A stretch of 64,000 nt of DNA from Abditibacterium sp. (lineage in GTDB: Bacteria > Armatimonadota > Abditibacteriia > Abditibacteriales > Abditibacteriaceae): NCBI GenBank assembly GCA_965199495.1, contig CBDASK010000003.1, forward strand, positions 2,656,001 through 2,720,000. The letters run 5' to 3'. Position numbers and translations under genes: made by a program. The notes under the pieces are model-generated. The model ran no database searches. It saw only the letters and a program-made list of their open reading frames with translations, and had not been told where the DNA came from. Position 1 is the stretch's first letter; every line of letters starts with the position of its first letter. This document shows positions 29,462 to 34,943 of the stretch, piece after piece.

Positions 29462-29704
29462 ATGAATCCCGATCCGACCAAAGCAACCAACACGCAAGAT
29501 ACCGGCACCGACGGCCTGAAATTCGATTTGCCGCCCGGTCAAACGCCCGGCGAAGGTCTGGGCACCGGCCAAACCGGCATGAAAAATTTCAACGCCGACG
29601 AGCCAAAGAAAGAAGCCGACGAGTCCGACTGGAACGCAGCCACGGGCGACGGACAAAAGAGCGAAGAAGTCTCAACGCGCGATCAAGACAACTCGACGGT
29701 TTAA
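29462..29704 (+). CDS. Small acidic hydrophilic hypothetical protein
   Basis: ATG at 29462, host-like codon usage, followed directly by a terminator. Confidence 0.65.
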   Translation: MNPDPTKATNTQDTGTDGLKFDLPPGQTPGEGLGTGQTGMKNFNADEPKKEADESDWNAATGDGQKSEEVSTRDQDNSTV

Positions 29705-29707
29705 AGG

Positions 29708-29746
29708 AAAAAGCGCGGATGCCGTGAAAAGCATCCGCGCTTTTTT
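29708..29746. terminator. Rho-independent terminator, possibly bidirectional
   Basis: AAAAAGCGCGGATGC-loop-GCATCCGCGCTTTTTT between convergent genes. Confidence 0.85.
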
Positions 29747-29846
29747 GTGTGAATCTCAATCGAGAACCATTGGTGGAGAACGGCGGACAACAAAGCAACA
29801 TCAGTCTTCCTTAGCCGCAACACTTCGAAAATATGCGAACGAAATT

Positions 29847-30344
29847 TCAGTTTGGCTCAAACGGCGCAAAATTCGGCTCCCAAGTGGCGATTTGGGCCAG
29901 AGATTCCTTCAATCGGCTGAAGAGTTTGCGATCTTTCTTGAGGATAAGTTCAGGTTTCGTGTAAATTAAAGCGTGAGCCGCGTTAGGCGGAATTCTTTTC
30001 AGAAGTGGATCGGCTCTGACATCAACGACGCGAATATCAGCGGCCTGTCCATCACTTATTCTCGTTACCGTTCCAATGGCACGCACGGCACGCGTTTGCA
30101 AACAGCAAATATAATCAGTCGTTTCGACTTGTGAGTGCGAGGCATCGTGAGCGCACTTACTCGCGCGGTCAACAGAAATTTGGTAGCTTGGATCTAAAAA
30201 AGCATCGGTCGTGGTTTTGAGTTGACCATCGCGCCATTCAATCCGTTTCAAACCATGCTTCACAGCACGATAAAGTAATTCGTCGTCGCCGACGTTTCCC
30301 TCATCAGTATGGGATTCATCCCCAGAAATCGCTGCTTTGCCCAT
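29847..30344 (-). CDS. Hypothetical protein with an ADP-ribosyltransferase/RES-like R-S-H pattern (putative toxin)
   Basis: ELLYR(26), AF, IS(57)VD and DP...NAAH(124)ALI; GGAAGG Shine-Dalgarno upstream; function inferred. Confidence 0.6.
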   Translation of the reverse strand: MGKAAISGDESHTDEGNVGDDELLYRAVKHGLKRIEWRDGQLKTTTDAFLDPSYQISVDRASKCAHDASHSQVETTDYICCLQTRAVRAIGTVTRISDGQAADIRVVDVRADPLLKRIPPNAAHALIYTKPELILKKDRKLFSRLKESLAQIATWEPNFAPFEPN

Positions 30345-30375
30345 AGATAATAAACCTTCCGTTACTCAGGCGCTT

Positions 30376-30876
30376 TTATATGTGTAACCAATTCCACAAC
30401 AAGCGGACTTGATTGGTGTTTTCAATATCTCCGTCTTCCATTTCATCAATGAGATGTGGCCCCCAAACTTTGAGGTATTCAACAGCTTCGGGCGTGATAT
30501 AAAGCGTAAGTTTGTGCGTGCCCTGCCACCATTCGAGCGAAACATTGCCTTCTTCGTCGGAAGAAATATAAGGTTGGCGCCATTCATACCGCGTGGAATC
30601 CACCGTCGCAAACATTTGGGGAATCCAACGAATGGCCGCATCAATGGCATCGCCATTGGGAGCGGGTGCATTATGCCCATCCCATCCGGTTTGTCTTGCG
30701 CGCAAGTCGCGAATTTTGCGCAAAGTCGCCAGCAACGCACTCTGAAAATTACGTTGAATTGTCGCCGGTGTTTGCGGCTGGTAAGCGTAATTCTCCTGGC
30801 GGATGTTATAGCTAATGCGCGCGGGCGTCTGTTTGCGCGCGGGTTCTGGCGGCGTGGCTACAAATGATAAAAGCAT
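30376..30876 (-). CDS. Hypothetical protein with a GWDG motif (putative antitoxin/immunity)
   Basis: GWDGHNAPAP...PYISSDEEGNVSLEW; its ATG overlaps the upstream TAA (TAATG). Confidence 0.7.
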   Translation of the reverse strand: MLLSFVATPPEPARKQTPARISYNIRQENYAYQPQTPATIQRNFQSALLATLRKIRDLRARQTGWDGHNAPAPNGDAIDAAIRWIPQMFATVDSTRYEWRQPYISSDEEGNVSLEWWQGTHKLTLYITPEAVEYLKVWGPHLIDEMEDGDIENTNQVRLLWNWLHI

Positions 30877-31640
30877 TAGCGGATGATCTCCCTGAGTTTT
30901 TCGGTGATGCTGCTTTCAAAAAGCAGATTCTTACGGACGCGCAACGCCTCCAGATACTCCCACATTTGCTCTTCTTGGCCGGATGGCCAGGGAGAAGCAG
31001 AGCGATCTTGCGATAAGTCGAAATCCAGAATAATTGAAGCCTCATTCTCGCTGGTTGGCGGAGATGCTGCTGTGTTGACAATCAAATCGCATTCCAAATC
31101 GGTTTGCCGCAGTTGCAACTGCATAAAGTAACCGTTCATTGCGCTGGTTGAAGCGTCGAAGGCGGCTCTTGGCATAATTTTCAGATAATCGTCGAGAACG
31201 ATATCTTTATGAAAGTCCATTGGCGTCGCGATTTGGTTGATGTAGCGCAGAGCCACGCGCGTCACGCCTTCAAAAGGGTAGAGCGCGCGGTAGTCGTTCC
31301 AAACGCGACGGGCTTCATCGCGGAACTGCGACCATCGTCCATAAGGCGCGCGCCGACTGAAAGTGAACCCGTCCAGACGCGCCTGAAAACGTTGATGCTC
31401 GTCTTTTTGAGTGAAGACGCAACCGGTGAAATCCTGATGATGCAGAATTTCGAGTTCGTCGCCCAATTCCCCCGCTTCAACGTCGAGTTGAAAACTAAAA
31501 GGTTTGACAATAGTTGATTCTCCTAACGCTTCGCTTAGAGAGTGAAACTTTTCTATGTCGAAATCATTCACGGGAGTTACACGCAAATCTATAACAGCCT
31601 CAATAATGGGCGCTTTGGTGTAGTGAAGTTCGGTGGACAT
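30876..31640 (-). CDS. TIGR04255-like protein
   Basis: YTKAPIIEAVIDLR N-terminus, YGRWSQF, RVALRYINQI, IILDFD and KNLLFESSIT, a pattern I recognise from this sporadically distributed family. Confidence 0.78.
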   Translation of the reverse strand: MSTELHYTKAPIIEAVIDLRVTPVNDFDIEKFHSLSEALGESTIVKPFSFQLDVEAGELGDELEILHHQDFTGCVFTQKDEHQRFQARLDGFTFSRRAPYGRWSQFRDEARRVWNDYRALYPFEGVTRVALRYINQIATPMDFHKDIVLDDYLKIMPRAAFDASTSAMNGYFMQLQLRQTDLECDLIVNTAASPPTSENEASIILDFDLSQDRSASPWPSGQEEQMWEYLEALRVRKNLLFESSITEKLREIIR

Positions 31641-31926
31641 TGAAGAAATCGCGTGTCTTTAAAAATGCCAGTTCTCTCAGCAAATTCTGTCAACATTTCT
31701 GCCCTATGGAGAAACGGACGCGCTTCATGTCAATTTGACCTATCTTCGCGATTAGAGTTGTCTATTCGGGCGAGGACGCACTTGATAGCATAAAGCATGA
31801 CGCGAAAAGTCGCAATCGCGAATTCGTTCTTTTCGCCCTTCACGGGGTGAAAGTTTGCCCTAATTCGGCGCATCTGTTAAAATGAAAAGGCAAAATCTAA
31901 AGGAAAAACAACCGCAAGAGAAAATC

Positions 31927-32196
31927 ATGACAGTAGCTGAATTCGACAAAGGCGCAATCATGCGCGAACACCAGAAGCACGAAGGCGACACCGGCTCGCC
32001 CGAAGTTCAAATTGCGCTGCAAACCACGCGCATCAATTATCTGACCGATCACCTCAAGACGCACAAAAAAGACCACGCCTCGCGCCTGGGCCTCTTGAAA
32101 TTGGTCGGCTCCCGCCGCCGCTTGCTGCGCTATCTGCAAACCAACGATGTCGAGCGTTATCGCGCCATCATCGGAAAGCTCGGCCTGCGCCGCTAA
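31927..32196 (+). CDS. rpsO: 30S ribosomal protein S15
   Basis: [22 protein letters not shown] and LGLRR; 89 aa; precedes pnp. Confidence 0.97.
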
Positions 32197-32450: not shown

Positions 32451-34943
32451 ATGGCAATACAACCAGAAAGCGTCTCGCTCGAATGGGGCGGACGTACCCT
32501 CAGCATCGAAACCGGGCTTTTCGCCCCACAGGCCAACGGCGCCGTGACGGTGCAATATGGCGATACCGTCGTGCTCGTGACCGCGACGATGGCGCGTTCG
32601 CCGCGTCCCGGCATGGACTTTTTCCCGCTCACCGTTGATTACGAAGAGCGGATGTATGCCGCCGGAAAACTGCCCGGCTCGCGCTTCGTGCGCCGCGAAA
32701 CTCGCCCCGGCGAAGACGCGATTCTCAATGGTCGCATGATTGACCGCTCGATTCGCCCGCAATTTCCCAAAGGCGCGCTCAACGACGTGCAAATCGTCGT
32801 GACGACGTTGGCTTACGACGGCGAAAACGAAGTGGATATCGTCGGTTTAATCGGCGCGTCGGCGGCTTTGCAAATTTCGGATATTCCGTTTGAAGGCCCG
32901 ATTGCTGGCGTCAAAATCGGAATGTTAGACGGCGATTTGATTGTCAATCCGACGCATGACGAAATCGAGGAAGGCGATTTGGAGTTGGTGGTTTCGGCGC
33001 GCGCCGAAGGCATCTGCATGATCGAGGCGGGCGCCAAACAGGTCGGCGAAGACCAAATGGCCGAAGCGCACGAATTGGCGATGCGCCTGATTCAACCGGT
33101 TTTGGAATTGCAAAATGAGTTGCAGCGCAAAGTCGGCAAGCCGAAAGTGGAAATGATTATTTCCAAAGTGCCTGACGCCGTGATGAACGCGCTTGAAGAG
33201 AAATATGGCGCGCGTTTCAAAGACGCGGTTGGTACGGTTTCCAAAGGCGAGCGCAACGAGAATTTGGAAGCGCTCAAAGACGAAGCCAAAACCGCTTTGA
33301 AAGACGAGTTGGGCGACGACGCGTCGTATCTGGGCGCGGCGTTCGAGAAGTTGGCGGCCAAATATACGCGCCAGATGATTTTGGAAGAAGGCCGTCGCCC
33401 CGACGGTCGCGGGCCGGGCGATTTGCGCGAACTGACGGCGAAAGTGGATATTCTGCCGCGCACGCATGGCACCGGTTTGTTCTCGCGCGGCGAAACGCAG
33501 GTTTTGACGATTGCGACGCTGGGCAGCCCCGGCGATGAGAAAATCGTGGACGGTTTGGACGACGAAGAGAAAAAGCGTTATCTGCATCACTATAACTTCC
33601 CGCCCTATTCGGTCGGCGAAGCGCGCCCGATGCGCGGGCCGGGTCGCCGCGAGATCGGCCACGGCGCCCTGGCCGAGAAAGCGTTAGTTCCCGTTTTGCC
33701 GTCGCAAACCGATTTTCCCTACGTTTTGCGCTGTGTTTCCGAGGTTTTAAGCTCCAACGGTTCGACTTCGATGGCGAGCGTTTGCGGTTCGACGCTGGCT
33801 TTGATGGACGCGGGCGTGCCGATTGCCGCGCCGGTGGCTGGTATCTCGATTGGTCTGGTCAAAGAAGAGGGCGACGATTATACGCTGCTCACCGACATCA
33901 TCGGCATGGAAGATTTCTATGGCGATATGGACTTCAAAGTCGCGGGCACGACCGAGGGCATCACGGCGATTCAGCTCGATACCAAAGCCAAATATCTGCC
34001 GATGGAAATGATTCCCAAAGTCTTCGCCCAAGCGCGCGACGCGCGTTTGAAAATTTTGGACGTGCTGAAAAGCGCCATCGAAGCGCCGCGCGAAGCCTTA
34101 TCGGAATTCGCGCCGCGCATTTTGACCGTCACAATTCCAGTGGATTTGATCGGCACCGTCATCGGGCCGGGCGGCAAAAATATCCGTTCGATTGTCGAAC
34201 GGACGGGCGCCAAAATAGACATCGAAGACGACGGCACGGTGTTCATTTCGAGCCTCAAAGCCGAGGGCGGCGAGATGGCGGCGAAAATCATTCGCGATAT
34301 GACGCAGGATGTCGAATTGGGCGAAGAATATACCGGAACCGTCACGCGTTTGATGAATTTCGGTGCGTTCGTCGAGATTCTGCCCGGCAAAGAAGGTTTG
34401 ATTCGCATGGGCGATTTGGCGTGGGAATACGTGGATTCGGTCGAGTCGGTCTTGAGCGTTGGCGATGAAGTCAAAGTCGTTGTCAACGAAATTGACGATC
34501 AGGGCCGCACCAACTTGAGCCGCAAAGCGTTGTTGCCCAAACCCGAAGGCTACCAAGAGCGCGCCCCGCGCGAAGGCGGCGAAAGTCGCGGCGGACGTGA
34601 AGGAAGTGGCGGTCGCGGTGATGGCGGCAATCGTGGCGGCGGTTCGCGCGAAGGCGGCGGTCGTCCACAGCGCAGCGAAGGCGGCGGCAATCGTGGCGGC
34701 GGCACTCGCGCGCCGCGTAGCGAAGGCGGCAATGGTGGCAATCGTCCGCAACGCAGCGAAGGCGGCAATGGTGGCAATCGTCCGCAACGTAGCGAAGGCG
34801 GCAATGGCGGCGCAAGCCGCCCGCCGCGCGGCGAAAGTGGCAACGGCAATTCGCGTCCGCCGCGCAACAATGGCGGTAACGCGAACGGCGGCGATAGCAC
34901 TCCGCGTGGCGGCATGGGCGGTTTTGGCGGCCCACGCCAATAA
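32451..34943 (+). CDS. pnp: Polyribonucleotide nucleotidyltransferase with a long Gly/Arg/Asn-rich C-terminal tail
   Basis: FFPLTVDYEE, RREIGHGALA, SNGSTSMASVC and GDMDFKVAGT motifs; KH and S1 domains. Confidence 0.97.
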   Translation: MAIQPESVSLEWGGRTLSIETGLFAPQANGAVTVQYGDTVVLVTATMARSPRPGMDFFPLTVDYEERMYAAGKLPGSRFVRRETRPGEDAILNGRMIDRSIRPQFPKGALNDVQIVVTTLAYDGENEVDIVGLIGASAALQISDIPFEGPIAGVKIGMLDGDLIVNPTHDEIEEGDLELVVSARAEGICMIEAGAKQVGEDQMAEAHELAMRLIQPVLELQNELQRKVGKPKVEMIISKVPDAVMNALEEKYGARFKDAVGTVSKGERNENLEALKDEAKTALKDELGDDASYLGAAFEKLAAKYTRQMILEEGRRPDGRGPGDLRELTAKVDILPRTHGTGLFSRGETQVLTIATLGSPGDEKIVDGLDDEEKKRYLHHYNFPPYSVGEARPMRGPGRREIGHGALAEKALVPVLPSQTDFPYVLRCVSEVLSSNGSTSMASVCGSTLALMDAGVPIAAPVAGISIGLVKEEGDDYTLLTDIIGMEDFYGDMDFKVAGTTEGITAIQLDTKAKYLPMEMIPKVFAQARDARLKILDVLKSAIEAPREALSEFAPRILTVTIPVDLIGTVIGPGGKNIRSIVERTGAKIDIEDDGTVFISSLKAEGGEMAAKIIRDMTQDVELGEEYTGTVTRLMNFGAFVEILPGKEGLIRMGDLAWEYVDSVESVLSVGDEVKVVVNEIDDQGRTNLSRKALLPKPEGYQERAPREGGESRGGREGSGGRGDGGNRGGGSREGGGRPQRSEGGGNRGGGTRAPRSEGGNGGNRPQRSEGGNGGNRPQRSEGGNGGASRPPRGESGNGNSRPPRNNGGNANGGDSTPRGGMGGFGGPRQ

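Follow-up and report, generated by a model that had tools for sequence, protein, structure and literature searches.

We describe a cassette of three genes, read from the minus strand of a 64,000-nucleotide stretch of Abditibacterium sp. DNA (the window; contig CBDASK010000003.1, positions 2,656,001 to 2,720,000), in which a candidate toxin-antitoxin pair is led by a protein of the orphan family TIGR04255. The proposed toxin (gene 3; 29847..30344, 165 aa) has a predicted ADP-ribosyltransferase (ART)-like fold with an R26-S57-H124 triad and would use NAD. The proposed antitoxin (gene 2; 30376..30876, 166 aa) joins a variable, Ser/Thr/Pro-rich N-terminal tail of ~47 residues to a conserved domain, here termed WDG. 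Gene 1 (30876..31640, 254 aa, isoelectric point (pI) 4.8) encodes the TIGR04255 protein, a proposed chaperone or sensor. Judged by predicted fold and gene context, the toxin-antitoxin core of genes 2 and 3 appears well supported, and at about even confidence we propose that the whole forms a tripartite module with the logic of toxin-antitoxin-chaperone (TAC) systems, in which a helper other than SecB acts on the N-terminal tail of the antitoxin. The recurrence of TIGR04255 as the common first gene of many toxin-antitoxin pairs is of greater interest than the single cassette.

A predicted ART-like fold with an Arg-Ser-His triad in gene 3

Gene 3 receives no family name from Pfam, NCBIfam, PADLOC or PHROGs, its profile retrieves nothing from the sequences of the Protein Data Bank (PDB), and the ESM Atlas returns unnamed clusters together with DUF6098 (at 0.93). 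Its relatives fill 639 clusters at 50% identity, and a second phylum yielded it in just 2 of the 401 genomes covered, the centre genome included. A structure model built from 148 sequences (predicted local distance difference test (pLDDT) 92.7) gave no Foldseek match at E<=0.001. A wider structural aligner returned KptA as top match (Z 7.2, root-mean-square deviation (rmsd) 2.6, 85 residues aligned, 7% identity), with Tse2 (PDB 5ako; Z 6.9, rmsd 2.8, 102 aligned) showing the highest identity among the top matches, 16%. Other leading matches include AvrPphF, further Tpt1 enzymes, diphtheria toxin, VPA0770, Scabin and DarT; the first nine all belong to the ART superfamily, as do most of the other top matches listed, and the predicted structure has the ART core fold. 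R26 is kept in 144, S57 in 146 and H124 in all of the 148 family sequences, and in the model these residues lie on the first core strand, on the second and at the start of the last. Because the leading matches share one superfamily and the conserved residues fall on the expected strands, we regard gene 3 as ART-like, in agreement with a sequence-only reading of the window that had picked out the same three residues.

That reading had gone on to liken gene 3 to the R-S-E clade and had named RES among the families to be checked; neither assignment is supported. The putative triad is R-S-H and not R-S-E, the third position being His in 148 of 148 sequences; no RES family is among the Pfam families listed for the 148 members, and RES structures reach just Z 2.6-4.3. 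Nor is gene 3 a CmdT, since R26, S57 and H124 are conserved in place of the H-Y-[E,D,Q] triad given for that toxin in the available text of PMC11618068. As for Tse2, no family member (0/148) matches its Pfam family, PF18648 (ADPRTs_Tse2), and no Tse2-family gene was found in the 301 genomes searched. Tse2 may likewise use an Arg-Ser-His triad.

The C-terminal helix of the gene-3 family is basic and conserved (consensus FRRL), and this, together with the KptA match, makes RNA our first guess for the target. RNA ADP-ribosylation would accordingly head our ranking of activities, at a little short of even confidence; NAD+ breakdown is somewhat less probable, and protein modification is unlikely.

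Gene 2 as the partner of gene 3

Gene 2 has no Pfam or PHROGs name. Its alignment shows a conserved C-terminal domain (W65, A81, P102, G110, W116) behind a variable N-terminal stretch, and among the PADLOC models residues 259-332 of PDC-M32A match gene 2 residues 52-131 (E 1.5e-6). A search of 401 genomes of the organism's own phylum with the gene-3 profile found matches in 21. At E<1e-30, a WDG domain stands directly upstream of gene 3 in 16 of 17 loci, the 17th having just 220 nt of upstream sequence; at E>1e-30, five of ten loci show no gene-2 profile match, two of the five with <400 nt upstream.

The first genes of these 16 loci sort cleanly. Ten lack gene 1 and carry on gene 2 an N-terminus that we take, from a motif weakly supported by profile matches, to be AbrB/MazE-like; five, the window's among them, have gene 1 and lack that N-terminus; in one the first gene is GvpU-like; and none combines gene 1 with the AbrB/MazE-like N-terminus. 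Three metagenome loci, two of them identical to each other, are also of the two-gene form. The best evidence for the WDG domain as antitoxin is that this form has the standard layout of type II toxin-antitoxin systems. Read from their sequences, the two-gene relatives are an ordinary toxin-antitoxin pair, and gene 2 is most likely the antitoxin of gene 3; its position and the two-gene form thus bear out the role previously proposed for it. Complex prediction for genes 2 and 3 with gene 1 as partner scored 0.00 in both runs, which counts neither for nor against binding.

Other first genes occur in comparable places. At L035:2519-2956 a GvpU-like gene (67.8 bits, cut-off 70) replaces TIGR04255 ahead of the same WDG and ART pair, and the 1.5 kb covered ahead of gene 3 showed no gas-vesicle gene. 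At L053:2296-2703, among the weaker gene-3 matches, a DUF6941 gene leads a similar three-gene cassette with distant WDG-like and ART-like genes.

TIGR04255 at the head of unrelated gene pairs

Gene 1 matches the TIGR04255 hidden Markov model at 112 bits against a cut-off of 30, over positions 2-251 of 252, so that the family suspected from sequence alone is indeed its own. It has no Pfam or PHROGs name, retrieves nothing from PDB sequences, and in the ESM Atlas falls among TIGR04255 clusters alone. The family is present in 44 of 201 genomes of the same phylum and has matches in >10 phyla and one archaeal genome. A search for longer, fused forms scored 8000 candidates and found none, though as evidence this is weak. 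One copy, at L009:436-1218, is broken by an internal stop and has the same context as the intact copy of L003.

We took the next two co-oriented open reading frames (ORFs) behind TIGR04255 in 116 loci, having dropped four (two own copies, one duplicate and one split gene); 113 loci had a second ORF and 106 a third. The third ORFs encode DUF7689 (45), a family here called 'SQSCDL' (14), the gene-3 ART family (11), HEPN (9), other R-S-H ART-like subfamilies (6+5+4+2+2), a cyanobacterial family (3), membrane proteins (2), PIN (2) and HNH (1). Compared with gene 3 by hhalign, the five other ART-like groups reach probabilities of 10-80%, against <0.5% for reversed controls. Second-gene families track the third: one family accompanies DUF7689, WDG accompanies the ART-like genes, and others accompany HEPN. 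Five distinct ART-family triplets were found from gene 1 alone (L014, L032, L067, L093, L097) and one more, L204, in viral contigs, so that the triplet is conserved in other genomes, a point that the sequence-only reading had asked to be checked.

The second genes share a feature beyond their position. WDG tails (n=21) are 51 residues long at the median and contain 2-9 aromatic residues; Pro, Ser and Thr make up 26% of the tail and 15% of the domain. Low-complexity tails also open unrelated second genes (12 examined by eye), and no DNA-binding Pfam match was found in the scanned second genes behind TIGR04255. On a quick tree of 80 TIGR04255 proteins, with a few partner labels taken from the second gene, partner type requires 19 changes, between the minimum of 8 and the shuffled mean of 45.6, and is therefore both inherited and repeatedly swapped. 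In congeners of the window's organism the cassettes are of the 'SQSCDL' type and not of the ART type.

The 'SQSCDL' family (L016:302-874, L024, L026-L028, L030, L062, L065, L072, L099, L111) is probably a new toxin family. Its members, of ~180 aa with motifs QGD, SQSCDL and RL.SPY.EHLSQAF, lie behind TIGR04255 and a short second gene whose product is largely unstructured and ends in a Pro-rich 'G.P' motif; those scanned have no Pfam, NCBIfam or PADLOC match. One of the 14 comes from an unpublished genome, and no claim depends on it. DUF7689 (L068:6729-7636 and 44 similar loci), the commonest third gene, always follows a second gene of one unnamed helical family, and carries the motifs YNCIAWA...HAARQL...WTSKLG, a Cys/His pattern that presumably marks a papain-like enzyme.

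The predicted fold of TIGR04255

The gene 1 model (pLDDT 90) consists of two similar alpha/beta units, beta-alpha-beta-beta-beta-alpha-like repeats that form one sheet. Arginine kinases head its structural matches (Z 8.3, rmsd 4.1, 184 aligned), ahead of McsB (Z 7.6) and TBP (Z 5.8), with RepDE also among the matches, and the modelled fold is a two-repeat one of TBP/guanidino-kinase-like type. The internal repeat is read solely from the order of secondary structure, since the two halves as profiles gave no alignment (probability 0.9%). Counted without motif bias, the conserved positions on the core strands are E14 (26/27), R132 (26/27), D206 (24/27) and N/D135 (27/27); the alternating pattern of the strands would place E14, R132 and D206 on one face. 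Y100, W103 and F241 are conserved as well.

The C-terminal half runs strand-strand-strand-strand-helix, an order that resembles that of SecB. The SecB-like fold suggested for gene 1 by the sequence-only reading nonetheless finds no support. None of 27 TIGR04255 members matches SecB in Pfam; gene 1 and its relatives match no TAC chaperone, CmdTAC and PD-T4-9 included, among the PADLOC models through which alone divergent TAC chaperones were covered; and SecB is not among the matches listed (best 50) in three fold searches with gene 1. The organism's own genome has no SecB match.

Genomic context of the cassettes

Restriction-modification Pfam families account for 13 of the 131 nearest flanking ORFs, in 12 of 84 loci (E<1e-12), while in the window's own genome three of those families, at the same threshold, give 6 matches among ~4000 genes (a number estimated from genome size). 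The enrichment of restriction-modification neighbours beside TIGR04255 cassettes is strong but rough: kin are not independent, ResIII also matches other helicases, and the ORFs were picked mechanically. Several cassettes are each flanked on both sides by genes of a single restriction operon (e.g. L028, L079). In L204, a P2-like phage contig, a full triplet lies antisense beside the genes for tail terminator and tail completion. A Ralstonia phage record, ON170239, was not counted as a proven phage-borne copy because its triplet lies at the very end of the record, beside PAAR and unnamed genes.

A model for the tripartite module and its rivals

We propose that gene 3 is an NAD+-using toxin of ART fold with an Arg-Ser-His site, which on its predicted structure is highly probable, and that it is bound and inhibited by the WDG domain of gene 2, for which genomic coupling gives equally high confidence. 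TIGR04255 would bind the unstructured N-terminal tail of gene 2 and keep the antitoxin soluble and stable, and a phage protein competing for TIGR04255 would free the toxin; we lean slightly towards this combined step. It is drawn by analogy with TAC systems, whose chaperone binds a disordered, aromatic-containing element of the antitoxin. The outcome would be abortive infection, which the genomic context makes fairly likely. TIGR04255 may then serve as a general-purpose controller, to which unrelated toxin-antitoxin pairs have been joined by gaining a tail. A chaperone-sensor is favoured over a regulator or an enzyme.

Several of our own observations weigh against this model. Every fold Z-score, for genes 1 and 3 alike, is <=8.3, a range that can mean just a common arrangement, and when each half of gene 1 was aligned by hhalign with 30 canonical SecB sequences the probabilities (0.2-0.4%) were like those of reversed controls. 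WDG tails are barely richer in disorder-promoting residues than the domain (0.69 vs 0.63). The loci are a biased sample, the best 80 of 271 gene-1 relatives with near-copies included; five of the 11 ART-family loci came via the gene-3 search and one of the 11 is a duplicate. The AbrB/MazE label is weak: NF047400 matches three of seven such N-termini at E 0.06-0.21, far below cut-off, and Pfam finds nothing relevant on them. The ten loci concerned look like one clade in one phylum, so that a single event may account for the mutual exclusion of this N-terminus and gene 1; the exclusion would fit a DNA-binding role for gene 1 equally well. Finally, 118 of the 131 flanking ORFs are not restriction-modification genes, most being housekeeping or unnamed, and the window's copy adjoins rpsO-pnp, among housekeeping neighbours and in no defence island.

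The exclusion just described leads to one rival, which we consider unlikely, in which genes 2 and 3 are a toxin-antitoxin pair and TIGR04255 is a DNA-binding autoregulator whose TBP-like saddle replaces the AbrB/MazE-like domain. Its failure to co-occur with that domain in any of the 16 loci would be explained, as would the want of DNA-binding Pfam matches in the scanned second genes, and TBP and the replication initiator RepDE are both among the structural matches of gene 1. The family is, however, mostly acidic (median pI 5.5, n=121; 74% of them at pI <6) with a net charge of -15 for the window's copy, TM-scores to TBP are just ~0.28, upstream of gene 1 there is no clear operator repeat, and the N-terminal tails on unrelated second genes are left unexplained.

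The housekeeping surroundings of the window's copy and of most relatives invite a second alternative, namely that the module is a chaperone-dependent toxin-antitoxin system serving addiction or stress response, not phage defence; PDC-M32, with its matching domain, is itself still a candidate. This too seems to us unlikely, in view of the enrichment beside or within restriction-modification operons, the copy that occupies an accessory position in a P2-like phage and the frequent swapping of toxins.

A third alternative takes the leading structural matches of gene 1 at face value. As an enzyme of guanidino-kinase/McsB-like fold, TIGR04255 might covalently mark the antitoxin tail, by phosphorylation for example, and so switch the toxin on or off. 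Arginine kinases and McsB match over nearly the whole chain (Z 7.6-8.3), conserved polar residues (E14, R132, D206, N/D135) alternate on the core strands, and the gene 2 tails are rich in Ser/Thr. Identity to the kinases is only 8-11%, however, at rmsd ~4; no guanidino kinase Pfam match was found; and E14-R132-D206 could be a structural salt bridge. Phosphagen kinases have arginine-rich and NEED motifs, which are not evident in the TIGR04255 consensus, and we rate an enzyme as rather improbable.

That gene 1 is the true immunity protein with gene 2 an accessory, or that the three genes are merely co-transferred, is very improbable: tight translational coupling by itself assigns no roles, but genes 2 and 3 exist without gene 1, gene 2 families track gene 3 families, and one gene 1 family serves all toxin types.

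Beyond these, it is tempting to speculate that TIGR04255 is a widespread, independently evolved immunity switch of kinase-like fold that senses phage proteins and holds, or enzymatically marks, the tail, so that any pair gaining a tail, whether ART, HEPN, PIN, HNH, DUF7689 or other, becomes a phage-triggered suicide module, with GvpU-like, DUF6941 and PDC-M32A N-terminal domains as further interchangeable sensors. We regard this broader view as doubtful. Should the chaperone-sensor model itself hold, TAC logic would have arisen a second time, with an unrelated fold and at the opposite end of the antitoxin; a function would be given to a common orphan family; and unnamed toxin families, the R-S-H ART-like family, DUF7689 and the 'SQSCDL' family, would be exposed.

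The locus and its insertion slot

The ORF coordinates agree with the arrangement first described, three co-oriented genes of 254, 166 and 165 aa divergent from rpsO, and the TAATG overlap of genes 1 and 2 and the GGAAGG Shine-Dalgarno-like site of gene 3 (30355..30360, minus strand, 10 nt ahead of its ATG) are both seen in the sequence. Promoter prediction gave no convincing candidate ahead of gene 1. The cassette had been called AT-richer than its flanks and different in codon use. Measured against matched chunks from 1610 long ORFs of the same genome, GC is indeed low in all three genes (0.494, 0.503 and 0.488 for genes 1, 2 and 3, against a genome median of 0.579; lowest 2.5-4%), and GC at third codon positions falls within the lowest 1.4-5%. 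Codon use is atypical in gene 1 (lowest 5.2%) and gene 3 (3.5%), with gene 2 only mildly so, its value lying merely in the lowest 13.9%.

A terminator had also been placed near the end of the cassette. A GC-rich, perfect 15-bp hairpin with A/T tracts on both sides (29708..29745, -26.6 kcal/mol), a probable bidirectional terminator, does lie ~100 nt 3' of gene 3, and is not listed by a consensus terminator scan of the window. It is also found in the congener G125, which has no cassette, and therefore probably belongs to a small convergent gene and is used from both sides. That gene (29462-29704, plus strand) is a small acidic ORF, 80 aa from its ATG, with no family match.

The small gene, the hairpin and rpsO-pnp are kept in G125 at ~81% nucleotide identity, with rpsO 96% identical to the window's. 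By blastn of the window against G125, the variable slot (29772..31872), bounded by the terminator on one side and the rpsO upstream region on the other, measures 2101 nt in the window and 492 nt in G125. None of genes 1-3 lies within 1.5 kb of rpsO in the 11 of 11 congeners having an rpsO match, and the gene-3 profile finds no match in 12 congeners. As the same site lacks the three genes in congeners, the closest included, and the slot differs in length, the cassette is most simply a horizontal gain; no direct repeats were seen at its insertion ends. The region upstream of rpsO (window 31640-31930; L192-L202) holds different genes in nearly every congener and is a recurrent insertion slot, occupied in L195 by a pair judged by eye to be toxin-antitoxin-like. 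Further along, the 3' end of pnp (34560-34943) encodes a long, repetitive Gly/Arg/Asn-rich tail of repeated RPQRSEGGNGGN units.

Comparison with known systems

In the literature searched, which left subscription journals outside its coverage, we found no paper naming TIGR04255 and, among the papers listed, none describing the module, and we call it undescribed only provisionally for that reason. Its toxin-antitoxin core resembles PDC-M32, a phage defence candidate of PADLOC. PDC-M32A ends in a WDG domain matching that of gene 2, PDC-M32B hits two relatives of gene 3 (E 9e-5 and 6e-4), and a full copy, L144, has after PDC-M32A a small protein with an R..S..AH pattern. Unlike our cassette, PDC-M32 has two genes, with the WDG domain fused behind an unrelated 250-residue region that matches neither gene 1 nor any of 16 TIGR04255 proteins; PDC-M32B does not match gene 3 itself. 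Gene 2 matches just the C-terminal 75-100 positions of PDC-M32A, which places the cassette outside PDC-M32. In the portion available to us, the source of the PDC set presents curated candidates, with tests reported for HEC systems (10.1101/2024.01.29.577857), and the one mention of PDC-M32 in the literature searched is a PADLOC label in a prophage paper. The N-terminal region of PDC-M32A, which may be another modular sensor, is also found ahead of a PIN-like gene, joined there to a different short C-terminal domain (L145:1342-2256; cf. L144:1459-2652), and an ORF of similar appearance was seen by eye upstream of a TIGR04255 cassette (L029:32-1042).

Gene 3 can also be compared with Tse2 of Pseudomonas aeruginosa. 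According to the accessible text of a review, Tse2 is an ART-like toxin that depends on NAD, and its immunity protein blocks the site (PMC6099711); its target is given as unknown in the passages seen of PMC12133291. Tse2 differs from gene 3 in being a secreted type VI effector. Small cytoplasmic R-S-H enzymes with their own antitoxin would give tractable access to the target, so far unknown, of Tse2-like toxins. The NAD-binding domain of the RNA 2'-phosphotransferase Tpt1/KptA is the top structural match, from which gene 3 is set apart by 7% identity, the absence of the RNA-binding lobe and a different triad, that of Tpt1/KptA being H-H-h. AbrB/MazE-type type II pairs are matched in layout by the two-gene relatives (10 and 3 loci), which have the same toxin and WDG domain; in the window's form, unlike them, the DNA-binding domain is missing, whether by loss or from the start, and gene 1 is present in its place.

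A further parallel is with TAC systems. CmdTAC, HigBAC and MqsRAC combine a SecB-like chaperone with a C-terminal addiction tail (PMC11618068; 10.1101/2024.02.24.581848, both as far as their text was available), the chaperone binding a disordered, aromatic-containing ChAD element at the antitoxin C-terminus that can be grafted between pairs, and CmdTAC was found in the variable region of a P2-like prophage (10.1101/2024.02.24.581848). Likewise, our cassette has three genes, an ART-fold toxin as in CmdTAC, one helper family with several toxin types, an antitoxin with a proposed unstructured, aromatic-bearing extension, and one copy in a P2-like phage contig. Unlike in TAC systems, TIGR04255 takes the helper's place, and no relation between it and SecB could be detected; the genes are ordered helper-antitoxin-toxin; and the variable extension of gene 2 is N-terminal, its conserved domain reaching the C-terminus where the ChAD of TAC antitoxins lies. 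The cassette works, in our model, like a TAC system, but by its helper and by the end of the antitoxin that bears the tail it stands outside that class.

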